DNA of 64,000 nucleotides from IMG/VR virus record IMGVR_UViG_3300034073_003023; one strand, given 5' to 3'. The notes under the pieces are model-generated. The model saw only the letters and a list, made by a program, of their open reading frames with translations. It had not been told where the DNA came from and ran no database searches. Shown one piece after another: positions 11,785 through 30,830 of this stretch. Origin of the DNA: an uncultured virus (IMG/VR IMGVR_UViG_3300034073_003023) (lineage: Duplodnaviria > Heunggongvirae > Uroviricota > Caudoviricetes). Every line of letters begins with the position of its first letter. Within the stretch, counting starts at the first letter, position 1. Position numbers and translations under genes: made by a program.

Positions 11785-12141
11785 TCAATATAGTTTGATT
11801 TCCTTATATTCTGAATTAAACTTCTCGTTAATATCTTTTTTTATTCTTGCTCTCTCATCATTAGTAATATAAACACTACGAGCAAGTTCTATAAACTCTT
11901 GATCGAATCTTTGTTCTTTTTCTAAAAGTCTTAATTTGTCTTCAATCTCCCATAATTTTTCATTTACATCAAGTAAATTTTGCAAATCATCATAATTAAA
12001 AACATTATGATTAGTTGCGATTTCTATTAAATGATTTAGTTCCTTACGAACGTATTCATTATCAGTATACTTTGATTTAATTTGGAGAATTGATATCTTA
12101 TCAATCAATTCTCCAACAGATACTGGAATATCTACTCTCAT
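11785..12141 (-). CDS. DUF6165-like protein
   Basis: PVSVGELIDKISILQIK...LWEIEDKLR...FIELARSVYITNDERA signature. Confidence 0.8.
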   Translation of the reverse strand: MRVDIPVSVGELIDKISILQIKSKYTDNEYVRKELNHLIEIATNHNVFNYDDLQNLLDVNEKLWEIEDKLRLLEKEQRFDQEFIELARSVYITNDERARIKKDINEKFNSEYKEIKLY

Positions 12142-14285: not shown

Positions 14286-14965
14286 TCAATACAAGGTGAT
14301 AATAAATCTGCTTGACAATGTGTAGAATAACCAGGAATTGCTGATATTAGAACTTTACCTCTTTGTGATAATTCCAAAAACTTATAATGATCTGCTGATG
14401 GTTCAACTCCTGTAGAGTATTTAATGTGATACTCAAGATCATTTATAAGAGTTGAATATTTTGTAGCAAATGTATTGGTGGTGGAAGGTGTTGCCATCCA
14501 ATGAGAAGATTCAGTATGCAAAACTTTTGTTCTGAACTCTGCATAATACTCACCATACTTGTCTCTGTGGTCGTATAAGGTCGCATAAGAGACTGGAAGG
14601 GTAAATCCCTCGATTAAGATCTTATCCCACCCTGGACGGTGTACATAGTCATCCTCAAGAAAATAGATAATATCTTCGGAAGAATGATTTTGGGTTTGAA
14701 TGTAATCTAGAGTCTTAAGAAAACTCTTTGCTTCTCCTCCACAATTTATAGTATAAACATTAGTTTCTTGAGACAAGAAAGTGTCTTCTATTTTTCCGTA
14801 ATGTTCGTCGTAAATAATTGTATAGGATGTATTTTCTGAATTTAATGTATTCTTAAAATTCTGAAATACTTTTTCTTTATCCCACCAATCTGGCCTTTGT
14901 TTTCCTGGTGCCTCTTGTATTTTAGAATAATAACATTGTCTTAAATAAACATGAATTTTTTTCAT
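14267..14965 (-). CDS. GT-A fold glycosyltransferase-like protein
   Basis: IIYFLEDDYVH motif. Confidence 0.65.
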   Translation of the reverse strand: MKKIHVYLRQCYYSKIQEAPGKQRPDWWDKEKVFQNFKNTLNSENTSYTIIYDEHYGKIEDTFLSQETNVYTINCGGEAKSFLKTLDYIQTQNHSSEDIIYFLEDDYVHRPGWDKILIEGFTLPVSYATLYDHRDKYGEYYAEFRTKVLHTESSHWMATPSTTNTFATKYSTLINDLEYHIKYSTGVEPSADHYKFLELSQRGKVLISAIPGYSTHCQADLLSPCIDWKQYL

Positions 14966-15570
14966 ACTAGATTGCCTGAGATAGAAATTCTATAATCATC
15001 ACTTGTCGTGAATGGATAAACACAATGAGATAAGTGTGCTGGGAATAATACTATTCTTCTTTCCCAGTCATGATCAACATATAATGTTTCAAGAGTTAGA
15101 TTACCCAGAATGTTTGGATAGAGAAACTGGAATGCTGATGCTGCTTTATTTTTTGATTCTTTTACGTGTGGTGCATTTAATTCATCTTGTACTTTATACG
15201 GAACCTTTAACCAACAAACGAAACTAAATGTTCCTCCGTGATGATGAATTGGATTAAATTCATTTTTCTTCTGAAAATTAACCCAAACATTGCCTTGTTC
15301 AAAATGAAAATCTCCATGCTTTCTTAAAAAATTCCAATGCTCTCCATAAGACTTACACATTTCACTCATGAAAGGTTCAAGATATGGAAGAGATTTTGGA
15401 AGTCCGTATTGCATTTCTATATTTCCTGCGAGACCATCATTCCACTTTTGATGATTGCTCCAATCAGATTGAATTTCTTCAACCTCACTCATAACTATTT
15501 CATATAGTTCGTCTGGAAGAATTCCTGTAGTAACTCCAGGATTTGGTAATGAAATGTGTGTAAAATTCAT
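14962..15570 (-). CDS. 2OG-Fe(II) oxygenase (TIGR02466-like); start revised to MNFTHI
   Basis: WVNFQ...NPIHHH, FPAHLSHCVYPF, RISISGN; ATGA overlap. Confidence 0.8.
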   Translation of the reverse strand: MNFTHISLPNPGVTTGILPDELYEIVMSEVEEIQSDWSNHQKWNDGLAGNIEMQYGLPKSLPYLEPFMSEMCKSYGEHWNFLRKHGDFHFEQGNVWVNFQKKNEFNPIHHHGGTFSFVCWLKVPYKVQDELNAPHVKESKNKAASAFQFLYPNILGNLTLETLYVDHDWERRIVLFPAHLSHCVYPFTTSDDYRISISGNLV

Positions 15571-16358
15571 AGTTTTAATAAATCGTATTTGTTCCACCAG
15601 GATTTCCAATCAATAAAAAAGTCTTTGTCCCATTCTGTTTGCATATGAAGAGTTAAAGAAGGAATGGGGGTAAAACAATAGTAACCTCTTTCATAATAGA
15701 TTCTACAAATACTCTCCATTTCCATTTTTTCACTTACTTCACTAGTTCCCATTTTGTAAAACAAGTCCCAGTTTTGATTAATAATACTTATATGAGTCAT
15801 CAAAGTAACTGCTGGATGAATATTAGTTCTCCAATACCTATCTTTTCCCACAACAATATTACATTTAACAGCAGTATTTTCTGGATCGTGATATTCAGCA
15901 GGTTTATTGAAAGGAAAAATACTAGCAGGCATTCCTAAATTGCAACTAAACTGATTAATTGCATGTATCATTAACTCGATAGAATTTTGTTCATGTAAAA
16001 AATCATCTTGAACAAAATAAACCCAATCCTTTCCATGCTCTTTTCCATACTTATAACATTGAAGTATGGATGGCATTATTCCATAGGTTTCAAGATGTGT
16101 TAGATTAATCTTGAACTTTGCAATATTAATCATTCGCTGAAGAATATTTAAAAATTCTTGACTTGAATGATCATCAAAAATTTGCAATTCTATTTCATAA
16201 TCTGGATAATTTTTTTGAGCATAATTAAGACTATCAATTAAAGAAAATATACATCTTGAAGATACTTCTATTTTTGGAGCATTACAATATCTTTGATGTC
16301 TATCATCACGGTTTCCTTTTGAATGAGACTGAAGAACTACTAACAAATGAGGTTTCAT
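15567..16358 (-). CDS. GT-A fold glycosyltransferase-like protein
   Basis: IFDDHSS and VYFVQDDFLH motifs. Confidence 0.65.
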   Translation of the reverse strand: MKPHLLVVLQSHSKGNRDDRHQRYCNAPKIEVSSRCIFSLIDSLNYAQKNYPDYEIELQIFDDHSSQEFLNILQRMINIAKFKINLTHLETYGIMPSILQCYKYGKEHGKDWVYFVQDDFLHEQNSIELMIHAINQFSCNLGMPASIFPFNKPAEYHDPENTAVKCNIVVGKDRYWRTNIHPAVTLMTHISIINQNWDLFYKMGTSEVSEKMEMESICRIYYERGYYCFTPIPSLTLHMQTEWDKDFFIDWKSWWNKYDLLKL

Positions 16359-17137
16359 AAATCAAATTTAGAATAAAGTTTTACATTTTCTTCTCCTATT
16401 ACATCAATAGGATTTTGTGAAATTTTAGATAGTTTTGGACGAATATCGTGAAGACCTTTTAATCCCCAAGCATCATCTTTTTGCTCTCCACAAGCATTTT
16501 CTATTTGATTAAAATTATTACTTTCTGGACTAATTTCTAAAAATTCATAAATCTTATTTAATTCTTCTTGGGGATTAGAAACAAGTTGATTGTATTCAAC
16601 TAGATAAACCCATTCTGGATATTTTGTGAGACCATAAACCATAGACTCATAAGAGGGAGAAACATAATATCTCCAAATACATTCTGCTCGATTATTATTT
16701 GTAATTGGAAGATTCTTTTTTCTCAAGTGATTATCAATAAAATTATTTTCGTGATTGGTTCTTTCTATCAGTGAAATATAAGAAGTAATAACTTCTGGAA
16801 TAGAACGATAAGTTGCTACAATTTTTGGTTTATTAGAAAGAAACATCTGAACTGTATCAAGGTTCTTTCCCCAAAATCTATGCTTGTCTAGTATTGTTGA
16901 TTTTGGAATATGATTATAAAAATTAGCAAGGACTGCCTTATAGACATTATATGAGATTGTTTTTCGATCAAAAGTAAATTGTATATCTACTTTATTAAAT
17001 GACTTTTCAATATCAGTTACTATGTCACCTAGAGGAGAAGTAGGTGAAACATAAATGTCTGAATGTTGATTCAGAAGTGATCCAAGTAATGTAGAACCAC
17101 TTCTTGGAAGTCCTCCAAGAAAATATAATGTCTTCAT
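16355..17137 (-). CDS. Sulfotransferase family protein
   Basis: PAPS-binding loop GLPRSGSTLL; 3'-PB-like YRSIPEVITSY; VEYNQLVSNP. Confidence 0.85.
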   Translation of the reverse strand: MKTLYFLGGLPRSGSTLLGSLLNQHSDIYVSPTSPLGDIVTDIEKSFNKVDIQFTFDRKTISYNVYKAVLANFYNHIPKSTILDKHRFWGKNLDTVQMFLSNKPKIVATYRSIPEVITSYISLIERTNHENNFIDNHLRKKNLPITNNNRAECIWRYYVSPSYESMVYGLTKYPEWVYLVEYNQLVSNPQEELNKIYEFLEISPESNNFNQIENACGEQKDDAWGLKGLHDIRPKLSKISQNPIDVIGEENVKLYSKFDL

Positions 17138-17164
17138 AAAATTATTTGATTTGTTTATTATATA

Positions 17165-18343
17165 TTATATTAATAGATCGTTATAATTTACTGCTGCTGT
17201 GTGTGAATCTCCACAAGATACTTGTCTCCAATTAGTTCTACCAGCGAATGTTGTGATTGGAGTGGATATACTTGTTGGATTATTATTTCCATTTCCTGTA
17301 GTAAATTCATTACCCCAAATCCAAAGGGTTCCATCAGCCTTGATTGCTGCTGTATGAATACCTCCAGAACTCACTTGTTTCCAGTTGTTTCCCCCAGCAA
17401 ATGTTGTGACTGGAGTAGATCTATTGGTTGTATCTGCATTTCCAAGTTGCCCAGAAGATCCAATCCCCCAAGTCCATAAGGTTCCATCAGTTTTGATTGC
17501 TGCAACATTATTAGATCCAACATTTACTTGTTTCCAATTAGTTCCCCCAGCGAATGTTGTGATTGGAGTAGATCTAGTTTGATTGCTTGTTTCTGTGTTA
17601 CCAAGATATCCTGCACCACCCGCAAATCCCCAAGTCCATAAGGTTCCATCAGTTTTGATTGCTGCCACATGAAAACCTCCAGAACTCACTTGTTTCCAGT
17701 TATTTCCCCCAGCAAAGGTGGTAACTGGAGTGGATCTATTGGTTGTATCTGCATTTCCAAGATATCCTCCGGCACCCCAAGTCCATAAGGTTCCATCAGT
17801 TTTGATTGCTGATGTAAAATATTGACCACAAGACACTTGTTTCCAATTAGTTCCTCCAGCAAATGTTGTGACTGGAGTACTTTTAGTAGTAGTTAATACT
17901 GAATCCCCAAGTTTACCATAAGTTGGGGTTCCCCAAATCCAAAGAGTTCCATCAGTCTTGATTGCTGCTGTGTGTTGAACTGCAGCACTTACTTGTTTCC
18001 AATCTGTTCCTCCGGCAAATGTGGTTGCTGGAGTAGACGTATCTACTGATATATTGCCAGTTCCAAGTCTTCCTGAAGAAGATTCCCCCCAAATCCATAA
18101 GGTTCCATCAGTTTTGATTGCTGCTATATGTTGGGATCCGGAAATTAATTGTTTCCAGTTTATTCCTCCAGAAAAGGTCGTAACTGGAGTTAATTTGTCA
18201 GTAAATGATGCCTCCCCAAGTCGTCCACTAAATGCTTCTCCCCAAGTCCATAAGTTTCCATCACGAAATAAATCTGCAGGAATAAAAACATCATCAAAAC
18301 TATAATCAACTCCGTTTTGTCTAAAGTTATAAAAGGTGGGCAT
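17165..18343 (-). CDS. RCC1-repeat beta-propeller protein, 7 repeats
   Basis: Seven LWxWG...TPVTTFAGGxxWKQVS...AIKTDGT units. Confidence 0.9.
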   Translation of the reverse strand: MPTFYNFRQNGVDYSFDDVFIPADLFRDGNLWTWGEAFSGRLGEASFTDKLTPVTTFSGGINWKQLISGSQHIAAIKTDGTLWIWGESSSGRLGTGNISVDTSTPATTFAGGTDWKQVSAAVQHTAAIKTDGTLWIWGTPTYGKLGDSVLTTTKSTPVTTFAGGTNWKQVSCGQYFTSAIKTDGTLWTWGAGGYLGNADTTNRSTPVTTFAGGNNWKQVSSGGFHVAAIKTDGTLWTWGFAGGAGYLGNTETSNQTRSTPITTFAGGTNWKQVNVGSNNVAAIKTDGTLWTWGIGSSGQLGNADTTNRSTPVTTFAGGNNWKQVSSGGIHTAAIKADGTLWIWGNEFTTGNGNNNPTSISTPITTFAGRTNWRQVSCGDSHTAAVNYNDLLI

Positions 18344-18364
18344 CTGGAAAACTTGTAAACGACT

Positions 18365-18718
18365 TTACTCTACAAAAATCACAGGAGTATTCATTTTTTC
18401 ACTCCATTCTTTTAAATATTGTTTAATTTCACTTTTTATTTCTTTATTATTTATTGCGATTGCTTTTAGATATTGACCGTTCTCATTATTCTCCACAGAA
18501 ACTAATACACTAGACTTATCAGGTCTCATTTCTTCTGGAAGTAAATACTGACTCCAAGCACATTGATAGTTTCTACAACATTCTGGCCTTGCTTTATGAA
18601 CTCCACAACCAGTACATTCTAAAAACTTACAAGACTTTCCTGCGCCAAATTCCCATCCAAAAGAATCTCCAATTAACCAAGTGCAGCAAGCAGTGCATTC
18701 TCCACATTCACGAAACAT
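18365..18718 (-). CDS. YkgJ-like Cys-cluster (CxxCxxCC) protein; start revised to MFRECGEC
   Basis: CGECTACC...CKFL...C...RPECCRNYQC; GGAAG RBS. Confidence 0.75.
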   Translation of the reverse strand: MFRECGECTACCTWLIGDSFGWEFGAGKSCKFLECTGCGVHKARPECCRNYQCAWSQYLLPEEMRPDKSSVLVSVENNENGQYLKAIAINNKEIKSEIKQYLKEWSEKMNTPVIFVE

Positions 18719-19361
18719 AGTCTTCCTCTCTATAAAAATATTTGTAAGGTTCATAATCTTCTGGTTGATATAAGGATTTCATTTTTCCATTTCCAGTACC
18801 AATCCAGAATTCACGATCTAATCTAAAATTACTTTCTAAAAAAGTATTATCTAATTGATTTATATAAGAAGCATTTGCCCACCAAAAATTCCCAACAAAA
18901 TGTTTTGTTCCTACCTTTTCCCAAGTTTGAGTTCCATCACTCCAGGTTGTTGGCCCAAGAATCTTAAGATTACTACCAACAGCATCATAATCATTTAGGT
19001 ATTCCACACATTCTTTCCACCGATCAATTACAAAATATTCCATCATCAATCTCCAAGATTCTCCATTCATACTTTGATGAGTCAATCCTTTCATGTGAAA
19101 ATAAAGAACCTTGTAATCTAGATTTTCTTTACAAAAATCTCTTAATGAAATTAAAGTTTCTGTTTCTTCTTTCCAATCTTGATTTCTTTTTATGATTGCA
19201 TTTCTTGGAACATTGAATAAGTCTTTATCTCCATTTACTCCTAAATGAATATGAGATGCTTGTCTGATTAAACCAGAAGTATATAATCTATGAATTTGTG
19301 CTTGATATAAAAAGGCACTTATGCCTAGTTGCGAAACGTGATAAAAAATTGCTAATTTCAT
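18708..19361 (-). CDS. Putative glycan-modifying / glycosyltransferase-like protein
   Basis: VLYFHMKG and HFVGNFWWA motifs; genomic context. Confidence 0.45.
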   Translation of the reverse strand: MKLAIFYHVSQLGISAFLYQAQIHRLYTSGLIRQASHIHLGVNGDKDLFNVPRNAIIKRNQDWKEETETLISLRDFCKENLDYKVLYFHMKGLTHQSMNGESWRLMMEYFVIDRWKECVEYLNDYDAVGSNLKILGPTTWSDGTQTWEKVGTKHFVGNFWWANASYINQLDNTFLESNFRLDREFWIGTGNGKMKSLYQPEDYEPYKYFYREEDYVS

Positions 19362-20146
19362 GTATTATACACTCCACCATTTTCTCCTCGCATTCCTTTA
19401 ATCATTGTAAGACCAAGATTGGGAATGCTGATAATATTTTTTTTATTAATAAATCTATAAAGAGAATGTTCTACGTCAGTTCCAGCAGTATATTGAATCA
19501 TTCTTTCCATATACTTAAATGCCTTTTCAAGTGCCTCTACGATCTCATTGAATAACATTCGATCAAAAGACCACAATCCAGTAACCATTGTTCCTTTTGC
19601 ACCATAAAGATATGCATATACATTTGCTAGTTCTATCTCATCATAATTTTCAGATTCTTCTGGAAGATATTCATACTTTTTAAGAACATATCTTCCTTCT
19701 AAAAACTTACTTTCATAATCTTGAATATTAAAATCATCATTTAGTAAATATCTTCCAGTCATTTTAAAGACTCTTTGACTATCACTGAATAGATTATGCT
19801 GCTTAATTGTATACAGAGCATTTAACAATCCTCTGGTTTCCAACAATGATTTTCCGTATGTAATTAACTCTGGTCTTTTTTCAAGATTTTGGTATATCTG
19901 CTGAAGAACAGGTTCATTATAAAACTCTAGAAATAAATCACACTTTTCTCTTAAAACTTCTTTGTATTTCTCATCTATTGGATGATAAGAACATTCAAAC
20001 AAAACAACGTAAGATTTTGGAACTTTTTCACGAATACATTTAATAGTTTCTAATGTTTGATTAAATCTTTGTTCTTCACCATGAGCACTAAAATTTTCTT
20101 CTTGAAAATGCTTAAGTGCTGATCCAACTAAAAATAAAAATTTCAT
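19358..20146 (-). CDS. Hypothetical glycan-locus protein (FKMTGRY motif); start revised to MKFLFLVGS
   Basis: ATGA overlap at 20143-20146; motif and context. Confidence 0.5.
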   Translation of the reverse strand: MKFLFLVGSALKHFQEENFSAHGEEQRFNQTLETIKCIREKVPKSYVVLFECSYHPIDEKYKEVLREKCDLFLEFYNEPVLQQIYQNLEKRPELITYGKSLLETRGLLNALYTIKQHNLFSDSQRVFKMTGRYLLNDDFNIQDYESKFLEGRYVLKKYEYLPEESENYDEIELANVYAYLYGAKGTMVTGLWSFDRMLFNEIVEALEKAFKYMERMIQYTAGTDVEHSLYRFINKKNIISIPNLGLTMIKGMRGENGGVYNT

Positions 20147-20865
20147 AGTAGTCCCCTCTTCCATGCCCATAGTTGATCCTCTATTTGATTCTCTTCTTTA
20201 TATGAACCTTTTTCAATCTTATCAGTCCACATTTCCAAAAGTCTAATCTTATCATCATCACTGACACAGAATTCATGATTAAACCAATAGTTCATTTTTC
20301 CATCTTGCGGAATTAACTTATAAAAACTTTCAACTTTTAATCCATACTTTGCAATATTACGACTTACAATATAATCATCAAGAATATGTTGAGATTCATA
20401 TCCAAAGTTTTTTTCTAGATCCATTGGATTTATTTGATCTATGAATTGCTCTGGATCCTTATGTGGTTTCCATGCGTGTCTAGTCCAATCACTGAAAATA
20501 CAAACCCATGTCGTAGCACCGATATTTCTACCATCTCTTCTTACATAATTGTTATGCATAAACCGAAATGGATAGTAATCGTGACGATTAAAGATTACAT
20601 ATTCTTTCGGAAAAAGTTCTGTAAGATCAGGGCAATTTGGATGAACTAAAGCATCAGCATCTAAAAATATTGTCCAATCATAATTTGCTCCAATTTCATA
20701 CAATTGAAACTTTTCCATATTACACGAAAGATGCGGGAACTTTCTTTCGTTGATAATAACAAAATCAGCACCAATCTTTTCAGCATACTTCCTCATATAA
20801 GGATATGTAAACTTAGTGATTTCTTTGTTATAATTAATGTCCAGTGTAACGAGTGCTTTCTTCAT
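20143..20865 (-). CDS. GT-A glycosyltransferase (GT8/GT34-like)
   Basis: EKFQL...YDWTIFLDADALV containing a DxD motif. Confidence 0.7.
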   Translation of the reverse strand: MKKALVTLDINYNKEITKFTYPYMRKYAEKIGADFVIINERKFPHLSCNMEKFQLYEIGANYDWTIFLDADALVHPNCPDLTELFPKEYVIFNRHDYYPFRFMHNNYVRRDGRNIGATTWVCIFSDWTRHAWKPHKDPEQFIDQINPMDLEKNFGYESQHILDDYIVSRNIAKYGLKVESFYKLIPQDGKMNYWFNHEFCVSDDDKIRLLEMWTDKIEKGSYKEENQIEDQLWAWKRGLL

Positions 20866-21331
20866 AATCTGTGTTAAAACTAATAACGATTCTTTGTTCT
20901 TGTTCTTCTTCCGTATAATGAATTAAATCACTTGAAAAAATAACTAGCAGTCCAGAGTAAGGTTTGATCCTTCTATCTATATCAGGAAATATTAGGGGAA
21001 CTGAATTATCTCCCACAGAAACATAAAATGCTCCACTTAAAATACTTTGCTCATTCTCATTACTATGATTATGTGCTTTTAATTTATTTCCTGGTTCAAC
21101 AACATTAAACCAACTGTTGATAAATTTAAGGTTTTTATCGTAGCACAGATTGATATGTTGTTTTATAATTTTATTCAATCCTTGCAATTCTGGATACATT
21201 AAGACTGGCATTCCAAAATTAAAAGTTGATTTACCTTTTGTAATTAATCCGTGCTCGTTTCCTTGAATTGCAAGTAAAGTCTTTTGAATTGATTTGAGGT
21301 TCAAAAATGATAAATTATATTCCTCTACCAT
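20834..21331 (-). CDS. 2OG-Fe(II) oxygenase (TIGR02466-like)
   Basis: SWFNV...AHNH, SGAFYV, FSSDLIH, RIVISFN. Confidence 0.8.
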   Translation of the reverse strand: MVEEYNLSFLNLKSIQKTLLAIQGNEHGLITKGKSTFNFGMPVLMYPELQGLNKIIKQHINLCYDKNLKFINSWFNVVEPGNKLKAHNHSNENEQSILSGAFYVSVGDNSVPLIFPDIDRRIKPYSGLLVIFSSDLIHYTEEEQEQRIVISFNTDYEESTRYTGH

Positions 21332-22655
21332 TTAAAAACTCCTTGAGTTGTTTTAAAGGTTCTTCCCAGGTTCTTGGTTTCTTTTGCTTGAACAAATGAA
21401 CATTATCTCCATACCACCAAGATTTTCCTGTTGAACTTGTCCATACATAATATTCCATAATCGGAACAAATACACAGACTTCTTTTCCTTGTGATGCTGC
21501 GATGTGAGCAATAGAAGTGCAAGAAGTAATGACTAGATCCATTTGAGATACAATTGAAAATGTATCAGTAAAATCACGACCAGGAATGTTAAAAGTTTTT
21601 ACATCATAACCTTCTGGTGGTAATTGGTCTGGAAGTTGAAGTGAATATAAAGATGCTGAAGTTTCAGAAAGAATATCAAAAAGTGGTTCTGGTTGAATCG
21701 AACGGAAATGTGCCTGCTCAAATCCAGAACCAGAGTTCCAAAATACACCAATCTTATATTTCTGGTCTTCTTGAATATATGAGTATTCAGATTCTTTTTC
21801 AGGGAGTGGGTTTAGATAGGGTGTTTGACCTAGATCTTCTACTTTTAGATTGAGATAATAAGGAAGTGCAAGAGCATAAACCCAGCAAGGATCTCCTGAA
21901 AATTCTGGATTATCCCAAACAAGTTCAGTTTCAAATCCATTATATCTAAAAATCTTTTGAATATCCTTTCGGGTTGTTGTCCAAATTGGATTCATTCCGA
22001 GGTCTTTTAGATGCTTCATAAAACGGACGTGAATTATTTCATCCCCCGCACCACATTGACTGTCTATGATAATACTTCTTTCTTTTTGTGGTGTTCCATC
22101 CCATTTTTCAAATGGTGGAAGTTTTCTATTTTTATATGCTTCTACTTCTCCTGCTTTGAGAAAATGTTGAAGTCCTGTATGAATATCATCTTTTCTGAAA
22201 TAATGCCCAGAAAGATTGTGATATGCCTTACGATCAATTTCAGCAGGTAATGGTTTTTTAATCAGATCAAATAAAAGTTTTTCTGCTTTTTGTTTTTGAT
22301 TAATTGCAGAATAAGAAAAAGTTTCTTCTAAAAGAAGTTCAGTATCTTGCGGATTTTTTGATTTAATTTTTGAAATTTGAGTTAATGCTTTTTCTGGATA
22401 GTTATTTTGATTATAAGCATTAATTAAATTTTTTGTTGTGATGTAGTTTTCTTCAGGAGTTCTTGTGAGTTTAAGTGCTTTCTCCCCATAATGCATAGCA
22501 TTTGAGAAGTCTTTAATCTCAAAGAAAATCTTTGCCACATCATTATATTGCTCAAAAGTCTCTGCTCTTTTGCCGAATGCTTCTAGAACTTGTGTTGTAA
22601 GTTCTTTTTCTTCAAAAGAATATAGTGTTTTTGTGACCAACTCAAGGGGGTTCAT
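21315..22655 (-). CDS. TPR + GT9/GT-B-like glycosyltransferase
   Basis: N-terminal TPR helices; QCGAGDEIIHVRF, MDLVITSCTSIAHIAASQGK, WYGDNVHLFKQ. Confidence 0.75.
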   Translation of the reverse strand: MNPLELVTKTLYSFEEKELTTQVLEAFGKRAETFEQYNDVAKIFFEIKDFSNAMHYGEKALKLTRTPEENYITTKNLINAYNQNNYPEKALTQISKIKSKNPQDTELLLEETFSYSAINQKQKAEKLLFDLIKKPLPAEIDRKAYHNLSGHYFRKDDIHTGLQHFLKAGEVEAYKNRKLPPFEKWDGTPQKERSIIIDSQCGAGDEIIHVRFMKHLKDLGMNPIWTTTRKDIQKIFRYNGFETELVWDNPEFSGDPCWVYALALPYYLNLKVEDLGQTPYLNPLPEKESEYSYIQEDQKYKIGVFWNSGSGFEQAHFRSIQPEPLFDILSETSASLYSLQLPDQLPPEGYDVKTFNIPGRDFTDTFSIVSQMDLVITSCTSIAHIAASQGKEVCVFVPIMEYYVWTSSTGKSWWYGDNVHLFKQKKPRTWEEPLKQLKEFLNGRGI

Positions 22656-22679: not shown

Positions 22680-22686
22680 TATTTAT
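22680..22686 (-). promoter_or_regulatory. T4-type late promoter ATAAATA ahead of the modification genes
   Basis: Heptamer about 25 nt upstream of the 22655 start; same heptamer upstream of structural genes at 24618, 42719, 43371, 49181, 57491, 58867 (-) and 58844, 59332 (+). Confidence 0.6.
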
Positions 22687-23930
22687 TAGAAGTCTACAGA
22701 CTTTATTGCTACTGAGTGTCTATTTCCAGCACTTACTTGCTTCCAATTATTTCCTCCAGCAAATGTTGTTACTGGAGTGGATTTGCTAGGTGTTTCATTA
22801 TTTCCAAGAGTTCCAGAAAATCCATTACCCCAAGACCAAAGAGATCCATCAGTTTTGATTGCTAATGTAAATCTATTATCAGCACAACTTACTTGTTTCC
22901 AATTATTACCTCCAGCAAATGTGGTAACTGGAGTGGATGTATTGGTTGTTGATGCATTTCCAAGTTGTCCATTATTTCCATTACCCCAAACCCAAAGAGT
23001 TCCATCAGTTTTTATTGCTGCCATATGAACTTGCCCACAACTTACTTGTTTCCAGTCAGTTCCCCCAGCAAAGGTGGTAATTGGAGTAGATGAATTACCT
23101 GATGTGGGATCTCCATTTCCAAGTTGTCCATTTGTCTTTAATCCCCAAGTCCAAAGAGTTCCATCTGTTTTGATTGCTGCACCAAATAGACTACCTCCAC
23201 TAATTTGTTTCCAATTAGTTCCCCCAGCAAAAGTAGTGACTGGAGTAGATCTATCAGTTATATCGGCATTTCCAAGTTGTCCACTACTGCCTCTACCCCA
23301 ACTCCAAAGAGTTCCATCTGTTTTGATTGCATATGTACAATATCCACCACAAGAAACTTGTTTCCAGTCAGTTCCTCCAGCAAATGTGGTGATTGGAGTA
23401 GATCTATTTCCTACTATAAGTAGATTTGCAAGTCTTCCATTACTACTACTTCCCCATAACCATAATGTTCCATCAGTTTTGATTGCTGCTGTATGCTCAG
23501 AATTTAAAGCAAAGGAACAACTAACTTGTTTCCAATTAGTTCCCCCAGCAAATGTGGTAATTGGAGTGGATATAATAGTAAGAACTGATGATAATGTATT
23601 TCCAAGTTGCCCACTAGCAGCAAGTCCCCAAGTCCAAAGAGTTCCATCAGTTTTAATTGCTGCTATTTGATCATCTCCAGCACTTACTTGTTTCCAATCA
23701 GTTCCCCCAGCAAATGTGGTGACTGGAGTGGATCTGTTTGGAGTTATATCGTTAGTTCCGAGGTTCCCATCAGAAGAAAGTCCCCAAACCCATAATTCTG
23801 GTGGAATACCAATTTGTTGACCGATTTCAGGATAAACGCTCAGTAAATAATCTTTACGGATTAACTTACTTCCTAAGTCAACTCCATTACTATCTTTAAA
23901 ATTAGTAGTAATATTTTGATTAGAACTCAT
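22686..23930 (-). CDS. RCC1-repeat beta-propeller protein, 7 repeats
   Basis: Seven repeats, counted. Confidence 0.9.
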   Translation of the reverse strand: MSSNQNITTNFKDSNGVDLGSKLIRKDYLLSVYPEIGQQIGIPPELWVWGLSSDGNLGTNDITPNRSTPVTTFAGGTDWKQVSAGDDQIAAIKTDGTLWTWGLAASGQLGNTLSSVLTIISTPITTFAGGTNWKQVSCSFALNSEHTAAIKTDGTLWLWGSSSNGRLANLLIVGNRSTPITTFAGGTDWKQVSCGGYCTYAIKTDGTLWSWGRGSSGQLGNADITDRSTPVTTFAGGTNWKQISGGSLFGAAIKTDGTLWTWGLKTNGQLGNGDPTSGNSSTPITTFAGGTDWKQVSCGQVHMAAIKTDGTLWVWGNGNNGQLGNASTTNTSTPVTTFAGGNNWKQVSCADNRFTLAIKTDGSLWSWGNGFSGTLGNNETPSKSTPVTTFAGGNNWKQVSAGNRHSVAIKSVDF

Positions 23931-24620: not shown

Positions 24621-27600
24621 TTATGAGAGTGGGAGGTCTGGTGAGATTCCTGATTGTATTGCTGCCGCATGTATTCTTCCAAAAAATACCTGTTTCCAGT
24701 TATTGCCCCCTGCAAAGGTAGTTACTGGACTATAAAACCTATTAGAATAATTTTGTTCAAAATTATTTCCAACTTGCCCAAAAGAATTATATCCCCAAGT
24801 CCACAATGTTCCGTCAGTTTTAACTGCTATTGTATTACCATAACCAGCACCTACTTGCTTCCAATTAGTAGCATTTCCATCGACTTCTTTAGGAGACCAA
24901 TTTTGAGGTGTTCCAAGTGCAAGGTCAGTATCATCTTCATTTTGTCCAAAAACATATAATTCATTATTAATTCCATCTCCTCTCAATGCAAAAGAACTTG
25001 AATTGTTAGTAAATACCTGCCTCCAATTAGTTCCTCCAGCAAATGTTGTAACTGGCGTACTTATATTTGGATTAGAAATTGATGCATATAAAGTTTTATT
25101 TCCAAGAAAACCATATCCATTATAACCCCAAGTCCATAATGTTCCATCAGTTTTAATAGATATTAAATTATTTGATTGTGAGCATACTTGCTTCCAATTA
25201 GTTCCTCCAGCAAAGGTGGTGACAGGAGTAGATACATTAGTTAATGATGCATTTCCAAGTTGTCCATAATTTCCACTACCCCAAGTCCATAAGGTTCCAT
25301 CAGTTTTGATTGCTGCTGTAATAGAATCTCCAGCACTCACTTGTTTCCAATTAGTTCCTCCAGCAAAAGTAGTGACTGGAGTGGATTTATTGGTCGTATC
25401 TGCATTTCCAAGATGTCCAGAAGATCCAATACCCCAAACCCAAAGAGTTCCATCAGTTTTGATTGCTGCTGTGTGAACAGCTCCATTACTCACATGTTTC
25501 CAGTTGGTTCCTCCAGCAAATGTGGTGACTGGAGTGGATACAACACTATTAACTGTTACGCCATTTCCTAATTGTCCGTTTGTTGTTACTCCCCAAGTCC
25601 ACAAGGTTCCATCAGTTTTGACTGCTACACCACAGTTAAATTGTGAACTAACTTGCTTCCAATTAGTTCCTCCAGCAAAAGTGGTTGTTGGAGTGAAAAC
25701 TGCTTTTCTTCTACTTGTGAATCCATTTCCAATTTTTCCAGAATATTCATTTCCCCAAACAAAAAGTTCTTTATTGACTCCATTATCTTTTAGTGCCACA
25801 GTATGTTCTCGTCCTGAACTAACTTGTTTCCAATCAGTTCCTCCTGCAAATGTAGTAACTGGAGTAGAACTATTTGCAGTAAGCACGTTTCCAAGTTGCC
25901 CTAAAAGTCCATTACCCCAACCCCACAAAGTTCCATCAGTTTTAACAGCCATAGTATGAGCGTATCCACTACTTACTTGTTTCCAATCAGTTCCTCCAGC
26001 AAAAGTAGTAATTGGTGTAGATCTATTACCTACTATTAATGTATTTCCCAATCTTCCGTTGGATGTTGTTCCCCAAACCCAAAGAGTTCCATCAGTTTTG
26101 ATTGCTGCTGTATGTCTGTTTCCGCTACTTACTTGTTTCCAATTAGTTCCTCCAGCAAATGTTGTAACTGGAGTAGATCTAGTACCTGTTATTAATGCAT
26201 TTCCAAGTGACCCATAAGACATTCTTCCCCAAACCCAAAGAGTTCCATCAGTTTTGATTGCTGCTGTATGAAAACCTCCAGCACTTACCTGTTTCCAGTC
26301 GGTTCCTCCAGCAAATGTGGTAAGGGGAGTTGAAGTAACTGATAAATTATTTACAGCATTTCCAAGTTGTGAATTAGTGCCCAATCCCCAAGTCCATAAA
26401 GTTCCATCAGTTTTGATTGCTGCAATATGAAACCTTCCGGAACTTGTTTGTTTCCAGTTGGTTCCTCCGGCAAATGTGGTGATTGGAGTAGATCTATCGG
26501 TTGTATCTGCATTTCCAAGTAATCCAAAACGTCCATCTCCCCAAGTCCAAAGAGTACCATCAGTTTTGATTGCTGAATTGGTAGCAAAATTATCAAAAGT
26601 ACTAGTTATTGAAACAGAAGATGATACTTGTTTCCAGTTAGTTCCTCCAGCGAATGTTGTAATTGGAGTAGAAATAGCACTTGTGGTAGTCAATCCATTT
26701 CCAAGTCTACCATTTTTTCCATTTCCCCAAACCCAAAGAGTTCCATCAGTTTTGATTGCTATAGTATGTTCATTGCTTGCACTTAAAGTGTAAAGATCTT
26801 CTGGTTCTGCAGTTAAAGTATCTGCCCAATTAGTTCCTCCAGCAAAGGTGGTGACTGGAGTAAATGGTATATTAGAAGTAAAAAATCCAAGTTGAGAATT
26901 GCTATTATTTCCAAATGCCCATAAAGTTCCGTCAGTTTTTATTGCTAAAGTTGATGAAATAGAAGAATGCACTTGTTTCCAATTAGTTCCTCCGGCAAAT
27001 GTTGTAACTGGAGTATAAATTACAGTTGTAGGTGTAGAATTGGTTCCTAGTTTTTCTCCAAACCCCCAAGTCCATAAAGTTCCATCAGTTTTGATTGCTG
27101 ATCCACTAGATATTGTATAAAGATCTTCTGGTTCTGTAGTTAAAGTATCTGCCCAATTAGTTCCTCCAGCAAAGGTGGTGACTGGAGTATATCTTATTCT
27201 TAGTGGACCATTCCCTAATTGACCATATACAGAATTTCCCCAAGACCACAAAGTACCATTGGTTTTAATTCCTAACATGTGATTTGCACCACATACAACT
27301 TGCTTCCAATCAGTTCCTCCTACAAATGTAGTAACTGGAGTAGATGTAGGTTCACCATTATTATTTCCAAGAGATCCATCTGGATTAAATCCATTAAATC
27401 CCCAAGTCCATAAAGTACCATCTGTTTTAACTGCAGCAGTGTTTCCTCTTCCAGCACTTACTTGTTTCCAATCAGTTCCTCCAGCAAAAGTAGTGATTGG
27501 CGTATATGCATCTACATCAGTAGTTCCATTTCCAAGTTCTCCTGAAAATGCAGCTCCCCAAGTCCAAAGAGTTCCATCTGTTTTAATTGCAGCGACATGA

Positions 27601-28133
27601 AAAAAACCACCTTCAACTTGTTTCCAATTGTTTCCTCCAGCAAAAGTAGTGACTGGTGTGGATCTATTTCCATTAACTGTATCATTAATTCCAATGTTAA
27701 TATTATCTCCCCAACACCACAAACTTCCATCAGTTTTGATTGCAAAGGTAGAAAATCCAGACAATGCTATTTGTCTCCAGTCATTCCCTCCAGCAAATGT
27801 AGTAATTGGAGTTGATCTGACAGCCGGAGAAGATGTTATTCCATGTCCAAGTTGTCCATTAAATCCATAACCCCACATCCATAAGGTTCCATCAGTTTTA
27901 ATACCTCCAGAATGACCATTCCCTAAAGAAATTTGTTTCCAGTTACTTCCTCCAGAAAAAGTGGTAACTGGAGTAATTACAGATGTTACTGCAGTATTAT
28001 TACCAATTTCTCCACCATATCCTTGATGTCCCCATAACCACAATTGATCTCCAATATACTGATCAATTAACCAGTATTCGGTTACAAAATAATTTTCTAA
28101 GTCTCCTTCTGGGGATAAAAACTGATTAGGCAT
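24621..28133 (-). CDS. Large RCC1-repeat protein, 21 repeats (3 x 7)
   Basis: 21 repeats counted; two pairs of atypical linkers. Confidence 0.9.
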   Translation of the reverse strand: MPNQFLSPEGDLENYFVTEYWLIDQYIGDQLWLWGHQGYGGEIGNNTAVTSVITPVTTFSGGSNWKQISLGNGHSGGIKTDGTLWMWGYGFNGQLGHGITSSPAVRSTPITTFAGGNDWRQIALSGFSTFAIKTDGSLWCWGDNINIGINDTVNGNRSTPVTTFAGGNNWKQVEGGFFHVAAIKTDGTLWTWGAAFSGELGNGTTDVDAYTPITTFAGGTDWKQVSAGRGNTAAVKTDGTLWTWGFNGFNPDGSLGNNNGEPTSTPVTTFVGGTDWKQVVCGANHMLGIKTNGTLWSWGNSVYGQLGNGPLRIRYTPVTTFAGGTNWADTLTTEPEDLYTISSGSAIKTDGTLWTWGFGEKLGTNSTPTTVIYTPVTTFAGGTNWKQVHSSISSTLAIKTDGTLWAFGNNSNSQLGFFTSNIPFTPVTTFAGGTNWADTLTAEPEDLYTLSASNEHTIAIKTDGTLWVWGNGKNGRLGNGLTTTSAISTPITTFAGGTNWKQVSSSVSITSTFDNFATNSAIKTDGTLWTWGDGRFGLLGNADTTDRSTPITTFAGGTNWKQTSSGRFHIAAIKTDGTLWTWGLGTNSQLGNAVNNLSVTSTPLTTFAGGTDWKQVSAGGFHTAAIKTDGTLWVWGRMSYGSLGNALITGTRSTPVTTFAGGTNWKQVSSGNRHTAAIKTDGTLWVWGTTSNGRLGNTLIVGNRSTPITTFAGGTDWKQVSSGYAHTMAVKTDGTLWGWGNGLLGQLGNVLTANSSTPVTTFAGGTDWKQVSSGREHTVALKDNGVNKELFVWGNEYSGKIGNGFTSRRKAVFTPTTTFAGGTNWKQVSSQFNCGVAVKTDGTLWTWGVTTNGQLGNGVTVNSVVSTPVTTFAGGTNWKHVSNGAVHTAAIKTDGTLWVWGIGSSGHLGNADTTNKSTPVTTFAGGTNWKQVSAGDSITAAIKTDGTLWTWGSGNYGQLGNASLTNVSTPVTTFAGGTNWKQVCSQSNNLISIKTDGTLWTWGYNGYGFLGNKTLYASISNPNISTPVTTFAGGTNWRQVFTNNSSSFALRGDGINNELYVFGQNEDDTDLALGTPQNWSPKEVDGNATNWKQVGAGYGNTIAVKTDGTLWTWGYNSFGQVGNNFEQNYSNRFYSPVTTFAGGNNWKQVFFGRIHAAAIQSGISPDLPLS

Positions 28134-30830
28134 TTACTTTCCTCCAGCAATTTCTTTGATTGCTTCAATTAATACAGCAATTAAGTTTCCGTAAGAAACT
28201 GTTTTTAATCCTTTATCATTTGTGGTAACAACTTCTGGAAGTATCTTTTCCATTTCTTGAGCAATGACACCAATAGATGACTGATTATGGCCGTCCTTCC
28301 AATCATATTTAACACCATTCATTTGCATTACAAGTTCAAGAGCATTTTCAATTGGTCTAATGTTAGTTTTCTGTGATTCATCAGATAGTGAATTGAATAC
28401 AGTTGCAGATAAAGTTCCAGAGGAAGGATTATAAGTTAATTTATTTTCTGAAACTTTTAACTCAGAAAAGACCCCAGAAGTTACAGTAGAATATCCAACA
28501 TAATAAGTTTCATTAGTTGATTCATCATTTACTACAGTTAAAGAAGCAGAACTCCCTTGAGTTCCTTGGATTCCTTGATTTGATAATCCCTGCAATCCCT
28601 GTAATCCTTGTCTTCCTTGAACACCTTGAGAACCCTGAACACCCTGATCTCCTTGTGCTCCAACTCCACCAAAGGTTCCTTGTGATCCTTGAATTCCTTG
28701 TCTTCCTTGAGTTCCTTGAACCCCTTGGTCTCCTTGTGCTCCAACTCCACCAAAAGTTCCTTGGGATCCTTGAATTCCTTGTCTTCCTTGAGAACCCTGA
28801 ACACCCTGATCTCCTTGTGCTCCAACTCCACCAAAGGTTCCTTGTGATCCTTGAATTCCTTGTCTTCCTTGAGTTCCTTGGACTCCTTGATTACCTTGAT
28901 TACCTTGCAATCCTTGAGTTCCCTGAGGACCACTTATATTTCCTATATTAATCCAATTACCACTTCCAACATATACCCAAAGGTCATTTAATGCATCATC
29001 AAGAACAGCATTACCAAGTTCTGCAGATGGGAAAGCAGCATTTAAAGTAGTTTCTGGATCATTAGGAGGTGCTACATTTACATCAGGAACGGATCCAATA
29101 ATAATAGTTGCTTGTCCATTAGCACCTTGAACCCCTTGAAGTCCCTGTCTTCCTTGATTTCCTTGAGTTCCTTGAATTCCTTGAACACCTTGATCCCCTT
29201 GTAAACCAACGGCACCAAAAAGACCTTGAACACCTTGAACACCTTGAACACCTTGATTTCCTTGATTTCCTTGATTGCCTTGTAATCCTTGATTTCCTTG
29301 AACTCCTTGGTTTCCTTGATTGCCTTGAATTCCTTGGTTACTTAATCCTTGAACACCCTGATTTCCTTGAACTCCTTGGTTTCCTTGGGTTCCTTGTATA
29401 CCTTGATCCCCTTGTAAACCAACGGCACCAAAAAGACCTTGAACACCTTGAACACCTTGATTGCCTTGATTACCTTGAACTCCTTGATTACTTAAACCTT
29501 GAAGACCTTGAACCCCTTGGTTTCCTTGATTACCCTGGTTTCCTTGAAGACCCTGATTACCTTGATTACCTTGAACACCTTGATTGCCTTGGTTTCCCTG
29601 GAGTCCTTGATTACCTTGGAGTCCTTGATTACCTTGAACACCTTGGTTTCCTTGATTGCCTTGAACACCTTGGTTGCTTAATCCCTGAAGACCTTGATTT
29701 CCTTGAACCCCTTGAGATCCTTGATCTCCCTGAATACCTTGGGATCCTTGTAAACCAACTGCTCCAAAAGTTCCTTGGTTTCCTTGATTACCTTGCAAAC
29801 CTTGGTTACCTTGATTACCTTGGACTCCTTGATTACTTAAACCTTGAAGTCCTTGATTGCCTTGATTCCCTTGAAGTCCCTGGTTTCCTTGGACACCTTG
29901 GTTTCCTTGATTGCCCTGTAAACCTTGGTTTCCTTGATTTCCTTGGACCCCTTGATTGCCTTGATTTCCTTGTAATCCTTGGGTTCCCTGAGGACCACTT
30001 ATATTTCCAATGTTGGTCCAATTGCCACTTCCAAGATAAACCCAAAGATCATTTAATGCATCATCTAAGACTGCATTGCCAAGTTCTGCAGATGGGAAAG
30101 CAGTGTTTAAAGTAGTTTCTGGATCATTAGGAGGCGCTACATTTACATCAGGAACGGATCCAATAATAATAGTTGCTTGCCCAGTAGTTCCCTGAGTACC
30201 TTGAACACCAAAAGGACCTTGATTTCCTTGATTACCTTGAACACCTTGATTACTTAAACCTTGAAGACCTTGAACACCCTGAACACCTTGGTCTCCCTGA
30301 ACACCTTGATTACCTTGAACACCTTGATTACTTAAACCTTGTAATCCTTGAACTCCTTGATCACCTTGTAATCCTTGAACACCCTGAACACCTTGGTCTC
30401 CCTGAAGACCTTGATTACCTTGTAATCCTTGGTTGCCTTGCAATCCTTGGTTGCCTTGAACACCCTGGTTTCCTTGATGTCCCTGAAGACCCTGATTACC
30501 TTGTAGACCTTGATTACCTTGTAATCCTTGGACTCCCTGGTTACCTTGTAGACCCTGAATACCTTGCGTTACAACATCTCTAGATGGAACCCAGAATCTT
30601 TCTCCCTCATACCCATCAGCAGCAATTAGAACATAATGCTCTACTGGAACTTTAATAGGACTTTCTGGAGTTCCTGGTGTAAAAGGATTAGTTCCAACAG
30701 AAGAAACACCAACATTAGGATCACCTAAATCAGGTTCTGCCTGTTCCAATCCAAGGAATTCATATCTATCAGATGTAATTCCTGATTGAGGTAATCTTTG
30801 TACTCTTCCTGTTGTATATTTCTTAGTCAT
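28134..30830 (-). CDS. Collagen-like (G-X-Q) tail fibre with C-terminal intramolecular chaperone (peptidase S74)
   Basis: Long GxQ triplet runs; SDESQKTNI...GVIAQEMEKILPEVV...VSYGNLIAVLIEAIKE. Confidence 0.85.
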   Translation of the reverse strand: MTKKYTTGRVQRLPQSGITSDRYEFLGLEQAEPDLGDPNVGVSSVGTNPFTPGTPESPIKVPVEHYVLIAADGYEGERFWVPSRDVVTQGIQGLQGNQGVQGLQGNQGLQGNQGLQGHQGNQGVQGNQGLQGNQGLQGNQGLQGDQGVQGVQGLQGDQGVQGLQGLSNQGVQGNQGVQGDQGVQGVQGLQGLSNQGVQGNQGNQGPFGVQGTQGTTGQATIIIGSVPDVNVAPPNDPETTLNTAFPSAELGNAVLDDALNDLWVYLGSGNWTNIGNISGPQGTQGLQGNQGNQGVQGNQGNQGLQGNQGNQGVQGNQGLQGNQGNQGLQGLSNQGVQGNQGNQGLQGNQGNQGTFGAVGLQGSQGIQGDQGSQGVQGNQGLQGLSNQGVQGNQGNQGVQGNQGLQGNQGLQGNQGNQGVQGNQGNQGLQGNQGNQGNQGVQGLQGLSNQGVQGNQGNQGVQGVQGLFGAVGLQGDQGIQGTQGNQGVQGNQGVQGLSNQGIQGNQGNQGVQGNQGLQGNQGNQGNQGVQGVQGVQGLFGAVGLQGDQGVQGIQGTQGNQGRQGLQGVQGANGQATIIIGSVPDVNVAPPNDPETTLNAAFPSAELGNAVLDDALNDLWVYVGSGNWINIGNISGPQGTQGLQGNQGNQGVQGTQGRQGIQGSQGTFGGVGAQGDQGVQGSQGRQGIQGSQGTFGGVGAQGDQGVQGTQGRQGIQGSQGTFGGVGAQGDQGVQGSQGVQGRQGLQGLQGLSNQGIQGTQGSSASLTVVNDESTNETYYVGYSTVTSGVFSELKVSENKLTYNPSSGTLSATVFNSLSDESQKTNIRPIENALELVMQMNGVKYDWKDGHNQSSIGVIAQEMEKILPEVVTTNDKGLKTVSYGNLIAVLIEAIKEIAGGK

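Follow-up and report, generated by a model that had tools for sequence, protein, structure and literature searches.

How is a single chain of 21 propeller blades sorted into rings? The question is raised by an open reading frame (ORF) at 24621-28133 on the minus strand of a 64,000-nucleotide (nt) stretch of DNA from an uncultured virus of the Caudoviricetes (IMG/VR IMGVR_UViG_3300034073_003023), hereafter called the window. The ORF encodes a protein of 1170 amino acids (aa) that Pfam assigned throughout to the RCC1 or RCC1-like domain, with PF25390 (WD40_RLD) scoring 590.9 bits against a cut-off of 150 (E 1.5e-177, 4 stretches) and PF00415 (RCC1) scoring 383.3 bits against a cut-off of 21.7 (15 stretches). 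An initial annotation, made from the sequence alone, had read this protein as nested: one propeller was proposed to have been inserted into another, twice, at points marked by two opening and two closing linkers. We analyzed these marks, their distribution among relatives and the predicted structure of the protein, and weighed a fold that follows the marks against other ways of closing the rings.

Four joint marks divide the blades into three sets of seven

The protein was split at the conserved motif TNWKQV, and a blade was defined as strands A-B-C-D. Read from its start, the chain has 30 residues of N-terminal peptide, then the half blade C0-D0, 20 full blades and, at its end, the half blade A21-B21 (aa 1144-1170), making 21 blades, the number of repeats in the initial annotation. 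Two single-ring paralogues encoded in the window likewise have strand C first and stop directly after strand B, so the simplest closure of the 1170-aa protein joins both of its ends in one blade. A closure of this kind (velcro), in which the two chain ends meet in one blade, is expected for members of the RCC1 family from the way their sequences begin and end.

Four marks interrupt this regular layout. Before blades 6 and 8, a 10-residue insertion, ADTLT(T/A)EPED, lies between strand D and strand A; these are the near-identical opening linkers that the initial annotation had located, and their DNA differs at just 2 positions over about 74 nt, as it had reported. A repeat search placed an 83-nt stretch over each of the two joints in one family (D10, 94% identical), and other blade-to-blade DNA identity is mostly 55-80%. 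In blades 14 and 19, where the closing linkers had been placed, the B-C hairpin is longer by 3 residues and the usual LW.WG is changed to LF.WG or LY.FG. The hairpin of blade 19 is followed by an atypical polar D strand (..SPKEVDGNATNW), and this blade is the most divergent in the protein, with 22-37% identity to the others.

When entry linkers and exit-type hairpins are paired like brackets, the inner set consists of blades 8-14, the middle set of blades 6, 7 and 15-19, and the outer set of blades 0/21, 1-5 and 20, that is, seven blades at each level. The 7+7+7 count of the initial annotation and the marks on which it was based are thus confirmed. If two entry and two exit marks are placed at random on 21 blades, only 70 of 36,100 placements (0.19%) give seven at every level.

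The same joints bracket seven-blade units in homologues

A search of 5.8 billion proteins yielded 7,998 scored candidates, 5,742 of them at E <= 1e-10, and the 120 homologues listed were analyzed. Their lengths cluster near 765, 1140, 1500 and 1850-1900 aa, which correspond to 14, 21, 28 and 35 blades; the blade totals, too, fall in tight groups at multiples of 7. The initial annotation had suggested looking for homologues with matched linker pairs, and such proteins were found in all four of these size classes.

We parsed the homologues in two ways. With regular expressions, marks were detected in 109 of the 120 proteins; 59 were balanced, and 48, which fall into 20 patterns, had seven blades at every level. 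Of the 135 closed levels, 110 contained seven blades. A looser expression for entry linkers gave false entries and was dropped. The second parse used small hidden Markov models (HMMs) of the joints with a Y/F criterion on 140 homologues (the 120 plus 20 from a second search), and detected an entry linker in 104 proteins, of which 89 were balanced and 78 had seven at every level, a count that is not independent of the first, to the cost of the nested reading, as the models were trained on the protein set that they scanned. The all-seven proteins of this parse fall into 23 patterns, nested to a depth of at most four, and seven blades were counted in 142 of 152 closed levels. The 26 proteins with an entry linker that are not all-seven mostly have one missed blade (levels of 6) or a missed mark (levels of 11 or 14).

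The joints themselves are highly regular. Most entry-motif matches (129 of 155) share a length of 15 residues and the consensus W-ADT-(A/P)-T-x-(E/N)-P-E-(D/E)-L-Y-T-(L/I), and the exit hairpin of the relatives has the consensus T-x-A-L-x-D-D-G-(V/I)-N-K-(E/Q)-L-(F/Y)-x-(W/F)-G. Bracket patterns include single inserts at no fewer than five different junctions (at least), side-by-side inserts, and four-deep nesting (e.g. P0002 and P0005). The pattern of the 1170-aa protein recurs in P0018, P0021 and P0032, and in P0007 with one more insert; across the four same-pattern proteins, which are 62% identical overall, the two linkers line up with one another, as do the two exit hairpins.

In the alignment of the same-pattern proteins (P0001, P0021, P0032 and P0018), the two linkers within one protein are more alike than their counterparts across proteins. 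Together with the 83-nt repeat at 94% identity, this within-protein likeness looks like gene conversion between the joints of one gene.

Two 14-blade relatives, P0112 and P0117, carry a different joint, ..IPISPVPDTNWKQIDE(T/S)DP(L/I)EVPLPTLAC.., at one junction and an altered C-D loop seven blades after it, which suggests a second, unrelated solution to the same junction. A search for representatives returned 142 further proteins (P0121-P0262), mainly giant multi-RCC1 proteins of 1083-7235 aa; 11 were inspected and the set was left out of the bracket counts. One of them, P0121 (2936 aa, 60% identical), has many of the same joints and an insertion of about 200 non-RCC1 residues within one blade. 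A search of viral contigs with the whole protein gave only 2 loci.

The three RCC1 genes of the window each have their own type of N-terminal peptide and a matching C-terminal tail. The type pairs are MPTFYNF../..NYNDLLI, MSSNQ..KDYLLSVYP/..KSVDF and MPNQF..YWLIDQY/..SGISPDLPLS, and in the 140 homologues the two ends agree in type in 25 of 29 (A-a), 31 of 45 (B-b) and 25 of 31 (C-c) cases, independently of blade number. We set this agreement aside as proof that the two ends share a blade; it proves nothing about the fold, because internal insertion alone keeps both ends.

Probable growth by insertion of a marked cassette

The family very probably grows by repeated insertion of a marked seven-blade cassette at D-to-A junctions, including junctions inside earlier units. 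This history is well supported because the grammar is family-wide and the all-seven pattern has a chance of only 0.19%. In the 1170-aa protein, two insertions of the cassette would have occurred, one into a seven-blade propeller and a later one into the cassette already inserted there. The conserved acidic entry linker (W-ADT.T.EPEDLYT) would open each cassette, the seventh blade of which would carry the lengthened B-C hairpin (AL.DDG.NKEL[FY].[WF]G). In the exit hairpin, sequence like the C-terminal end of single-ring proteins (..H..A(I/L)K..) is followed, after 3 residues, by sequence like their N-terminal start (EL(W/F).WG). Because of this resemblance, the cassette can be read as a former single-ring propeller that was closed by fusion of its ends and opened again at the next junction along; the exit blade looks like a healed velcro, the joined C- and N-termini of such a propeller.

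The proposal of the initial annotation that a constant scaffold could let the insertion repeat is well supported by the relatives, in which seven-blade units are inserted recursively at many sites. Its central claim, a propeller placed inside a propeller twice, stands as far as sequence and evolution are concerned, since the joint brackets seven blades recursively in relatives; as a claim about the fold, it is at odds with the predicted structure described below.

Does the fold follow the brackets?

The reading that we favour, to which we give about an even chance, is that the fold follows the brackets and is nested. The outer ring would be made of C0D0/A21B21 with blades 1-5 and 20, the middle ring of blades 6, 7 and 15-19, and the inner ring of blades 8-14. 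An inserted ring would in each case be suspended from its parent's loop face, and the two interrupted rings (5.5+1.5 and 2+5 blades) would close round the rings inserted into them. Blade 5 (aa 274-324) would then touch blade 20 (aa 1089-1143), blade 6 (aa 325-382) would touch blade 19 (aa 1035-1088), blade 7 (aa 383-433) would touch blade 15 (aa 823-875), and C0D0 would meet A21B21, whereas rings in chain order would pair 5 with 6, 7 with 1, 19 with 20 and 15 with 21. Even between proteins of only about 60% identity, the joint shows the conservation of core sequence, which points to a fold that follows the brackets. A second argument comes from how such genes could otherwise grow: unequal crossing-over of seven blades in arbitrary phase would usually copy one mark without its partner, yet 89 of 104 proteins are balanced, many of them with proper nesting. 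The high share is hence a sign that the marks are under selection, which they should be if they decide ring membership; this argument was reasoned, not simulated. The topological demand differs between patterns. One-level nesting asks little, because the meeting of the two chain ends makes the outer ring continuous, and only nested-bracket patterns, as in the 1170-aa protein, require ring arcs that are separated by another whole ring.

The chief alternative, which we consider a serious possibility though a somewhat doubtful one, is that three rings follow one another in chain order, made of approximately blades 0-7, 8-14 and 15-21. Linker 2 and exit blade 14 would then mark a real ring boundary, and linker 1 and exit blade 19 would be remnants inherited from the insertions, or surface or hinge loops with another role. 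These two marks would lie at arbitrary places inside rings, and the marks of 14-blade relatives would never coincide with a ring boundary. Rings in chain order leave both the strong joint conservation and the high balanced share without a reason, and their strands would number 29, 28 and 27 unless some loops pass from one ring to another.

Structure prediction speaks for this alternative. The only interpretable AlphaFold2 (AF2) model was obtained from an alignment of 51 rows in good register (the homologues with lengths of 1080-1220 aa, with two aberrant ones removed and P0007 added), with a mean predicted local distance difference test (pLDDT) of 66.5 and a predicted template modelling score (pTM) of 0.45. 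It shows three consecutive rings, at about residues 21-410, 431-806 and 808-1169, with blades 0-7 in one ring and blades 15-21 in another. Structural alignment bears these rings out: UVR8 (4dnv_A), whose sequence match spans aa 437-809, aligns to 431-806 (Z 49.1, root-mean-square deviation (rmsd) 1.8, 347 of 370 residues), RCC2 (5gwn_A) to 808-1169 (Z 40.5, rmsd 2.5, 339 residues), 8bqs_Dl to 809-1161 (Z 33.3) and the seven-blade peptidase propeller 8wt1_A to 21-410 (Z 16.5, 276 residues). Within the moderate confidence of the model, 431-806 and 808-1169 are thus two seven-blade rings like those of solved RCC1-like domains. Two-propeller GH74 enzymes align across 63-797, though with an rmsd of about 18. 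The initial annotation had called for such a prediction and had named three sequential rings in advance as the outcome refuting nesting.

Several features of the model limit its weight. Residues 1-63, 408-434, 796-823 and 1066-1080 have pLDDT below 50, the first three of these stretches lying at the start and at the passages between the consecutive rings, and strands C0, D0, D7 and D14 are not formed. Confidence is lowest in blades 6-7 and 19-21, and no other blades change ring between the nested and the consecutive fold. The alignment, dominated by other bracket patterns, is a further limit: at the first entry linker, the junction is plain in 35 of 50 rows, which pushes the neighbouring blades together, and at the second exit the hairpin is plain in about 38 of 50, so that neighbour signals for blades 5/6 and 19/20 were fed to the network. 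Because 5+2 blades precede the inner ring, the nested and the consecutive fold alike make blades 8-14 a ring, and the part that is modelled best therefore cannot discriminate between them. Predictors appear to default to consecutive rings on near-identical repeats.

Other runs were less informative. With only the four same-pattern sequences, AF2 gave an unusable model (mean pLDDT 37.4, pTM 0.40), so that no model supports nesting; the ESM Atlas lists the sequence without a model. Since the 1170-aa protein minus its inner ring equals the 14-blade 6(7)1 class, which has at least 18 members among the relatives and whose two rings both differ between the nested and the consecutive reading, we also predicted aa 1-433 and aa 823-1170 as two chains, each with a 21-row alignment of 14-blade 6(7)1 relatives and without controls being run. 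The scores of 0.39, 0.03 and 0.30, with the mark at 0.32, speak neither for nor against nesting.

Further observations weigh against the nested fold. P0027 (1121 aa) consists of 21 canonical blades among which neither an entry nor an exit mark can be recognised, and shows that the chain can pass from ring to ring through connections of ordinary length; P0077 (779 aa) has an entry linker without an exit-type blade. Judged from these two sequences, the full joint is not obligatory for multi-ring proteins, and either protein could serve as a natural control for its role. Moreover, the insertion history alone gives seven blades at every level, so the counts of seven are explained equally under rings in chain order and do not prove the fold. 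The consecutive AF2 model is real evidence against nesting, of limited weight and not decisive.

Some other arrangement is unlikely: rings of other than seven blades, arcs completed between the subunits of an oligomer, or a flexible string of partly open propellers would fit the lack of a confident global model from either AF2 run, the probably trimeric state of the neighbouring fibre proteins (judged from collagen repeats and an S74 chaperone domain) and the relatives that parse to levels of 6, 11 or 14, but blade totals cluster at multiples of 7, most odd levels occur in proteins with a missed blade or mark, and the AF2 model contains two well-formed seven-blade rings.

The entry linker and the healed-velcro exit blade may together form a reusable joint by which a complete seven-bladed propeller could be plugged repeatedly into the D-to-A loop of any blade of another propeller, a proposal that we regard as evenly poised. 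The result would be a branched tree of propellers, with three rings in the 1170-aa protein and up to five in close relatives.

Gene, protein and genome setting

The window is the tail-fibre and baseplate region of a T4-like cyanophage, with a guanine-plus-cytosine content of 31-40%. Its large neighbouring ORFs match tail fibres, baseplate hub, tail proteins and baseplate tail tube cap in PHROG, and on these and Pfam matches the gene for the 1170-aa protein sits inside a tail-fibre/baseplate gene cluster. From this position, we infer that its product is a virion-associated RCC1-like protein, fibre-associated and probably with a role in host binding. Literature searches combining RCC1 with cyanophage or phage matched only culture-collection numbers or locus tags, with nothing relevant to presence in virions or to binding. 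The closest isolate relative comes from Synechococcus phage S-SRM01 (52% identity), among 17 matching phage records in all, and the same three RCC1 genes occur in the nearest viral record, G001 (63,207 bases, estimated 25% complete).

The features of the gene and its surroundings are listed in Table 1. The fibre protein encoded immediately upstream contains two near-identical non-collagen domains of about 75 residues (ATIIIGSVPDVNVAPPNDPETTLN..NIGNISGPQG) and several repeated GxQ blocks. Between the RCC1 genes, 12138-22655 on the minus strand holds a run of small and medium ORFs; one of these, of 715 aa, matches methyltransferase and beta-1,4-glycosyltransferase PHROGs, and another protein of the run, of 446 aa, had no match in the Pfam scan.

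Table 1. Positions of the 21-blade gene, its parts and neighbouring features in the window
Feature	Position	Strand	Remarks
Whole gene, 21 RCC1 blades	24621..28133	-	1170 aa, stop codon included
N-terminal peptide, aa 1-30, type MPNQF..YFVTEYWLIDQY	28044..28133	-	co-occurs with C-terminal tail type ..SGISPDLPLS; type A, with the matching tail in 25 of 29
N-terminal half blade, strands C0-D0, aa 31-62	27948..28043	-	expected partner A21-B21
Blades 1-5, aa 63-324	27162..27947	-	arc a, proposed outer ring
83-nt repeat copy over entry joint 1	27115..27197	.	94% identical to 26788-26870 (family D10)
Entry linker 1, WADTLTTEPEDLYT, aa 327-340	27114..27155	-	between strands D5 and A6
Blades 6-7, aa 325-433	26835..27161	-	arc b, first two blades of proposed middle ring
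83-nt repeat copy over entry joint 2	26788..26870	.	repeat search, family D10
Entry linker 2, WADTLTAEPEDLYT, aa 436-449	26787..26828	-	between D7 and A8
Blades 8-14, aa 434-822	25668..26834	-	complete seven-bladed ring in both nested and consecutive readings
Exit-type hairpin 1, blade 14, ALKDNGVNKELFVWG with LF.WG in place of LW.WG, aa 780-794	25752..25796	-	
Blades 15-19, aa 823-1088	24870..25667	-	arc c, last five of proposed middle ring
Exit-type hairpin 2, blade 19, ALRGDGINNELYVFG, aa 1049-1063	24945..24989	-	
Blade 20, half blade A21-B21 and C-terminal tail, aa 1089-1170	24624..24869	-	arc d, proposed outer ring
Collagen-like tail fibre with C-terminal Peptidase_S74 chaperone domain	28134..30830	-	abuts the 1170-aa gene upstream; 898 aa
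DUF4376 gene, 223 aa	23932..24603	-	downstream; marginal match, 26.2 bits against cut-off 25
Single-ring (7-blade) RCC1 paralogue, 414 aa, without joints	22686..23930	-	
Second single-ring RCC1 paralogue, 392 aa, without joints	17165..18343	-	

Implications and comparison with known systems

Were the fold to follow the brackets, the protein would be a case of recursive nesting of domains of the same fold. It would offer a natural portable joint for the design of branched multi-propeller scaffolds, and would explain how phages multiply binding surfaces on one fibre-associated protein. Were the rings consecutive, the family would still clearly exemplify modular growth by a marked seven-blade cassette, and would be a useful hard test for structure predictors.

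The solved RCC1-like domains (RLDs) of UVR8, HERC2, RPGR, RCC1 and RCC2 belong to the same blade sequence family (PF00415/PF25390), and their seven-bladed geometry matches the AF2 rings, as the Z scores of UVR8 (49.1) and RCC2 (40.5) attest. All 31 sequence matches in the Protein Data Bank are chains of 370-536 residues, so none has several RCC1-like rings. The 1170-aa protein differs from these domains in having 21 blades per chain, conserved entry and exit joints, and a location in a phage tail-fibre cluster, and nothing in it suggests guanine-nucleotide exchange or UV sensing.

A literature search, which did not cover most subscription journals, returned no propeller inserted in a propeller with several returning blades and no recursive version of such an arrangement. 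The TREAD preprint was rejected as a match, since "nested" there refers to training subsets only. Two systems come closer. In the RCC1-like propeller of UBR5, blade 2 carries an insertion of about 270 residues, a second one of more than 220 residues separates blades 5 and 6, and C-terminal strands complete the first blade (PMC10830417). UBR5 thus shares the tolerance of an RCC1-like ring for large insertions, whereas its inserts (UBA and dSBB) are not propellers and no recursion is described.

The nearest known chain topology to the proposed nesting is that of yeast Trm734, a WD40 triple propeller in which one propeller is inserted in another. In it, BPA breaks off after strand c7 to admit BPB, and strand d7, which completes BPA, follows BPB in the chain; the N-terminal strand belongs to the last propeller, BPC (PMC6847430). 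Trm734 is built of WD40 rather than RCC1 repeats and has one level of insertion, and neither a reusable joint motif nor a family of variants with different insertion sites is described for it. A single strand returns after its insert, as against the five blades proposed for the 1170-aa protein. If the nested fold is correct, blades of one ring would still close when split by at least one whole ring, which goes well beyond the single returning strand of Trm734.

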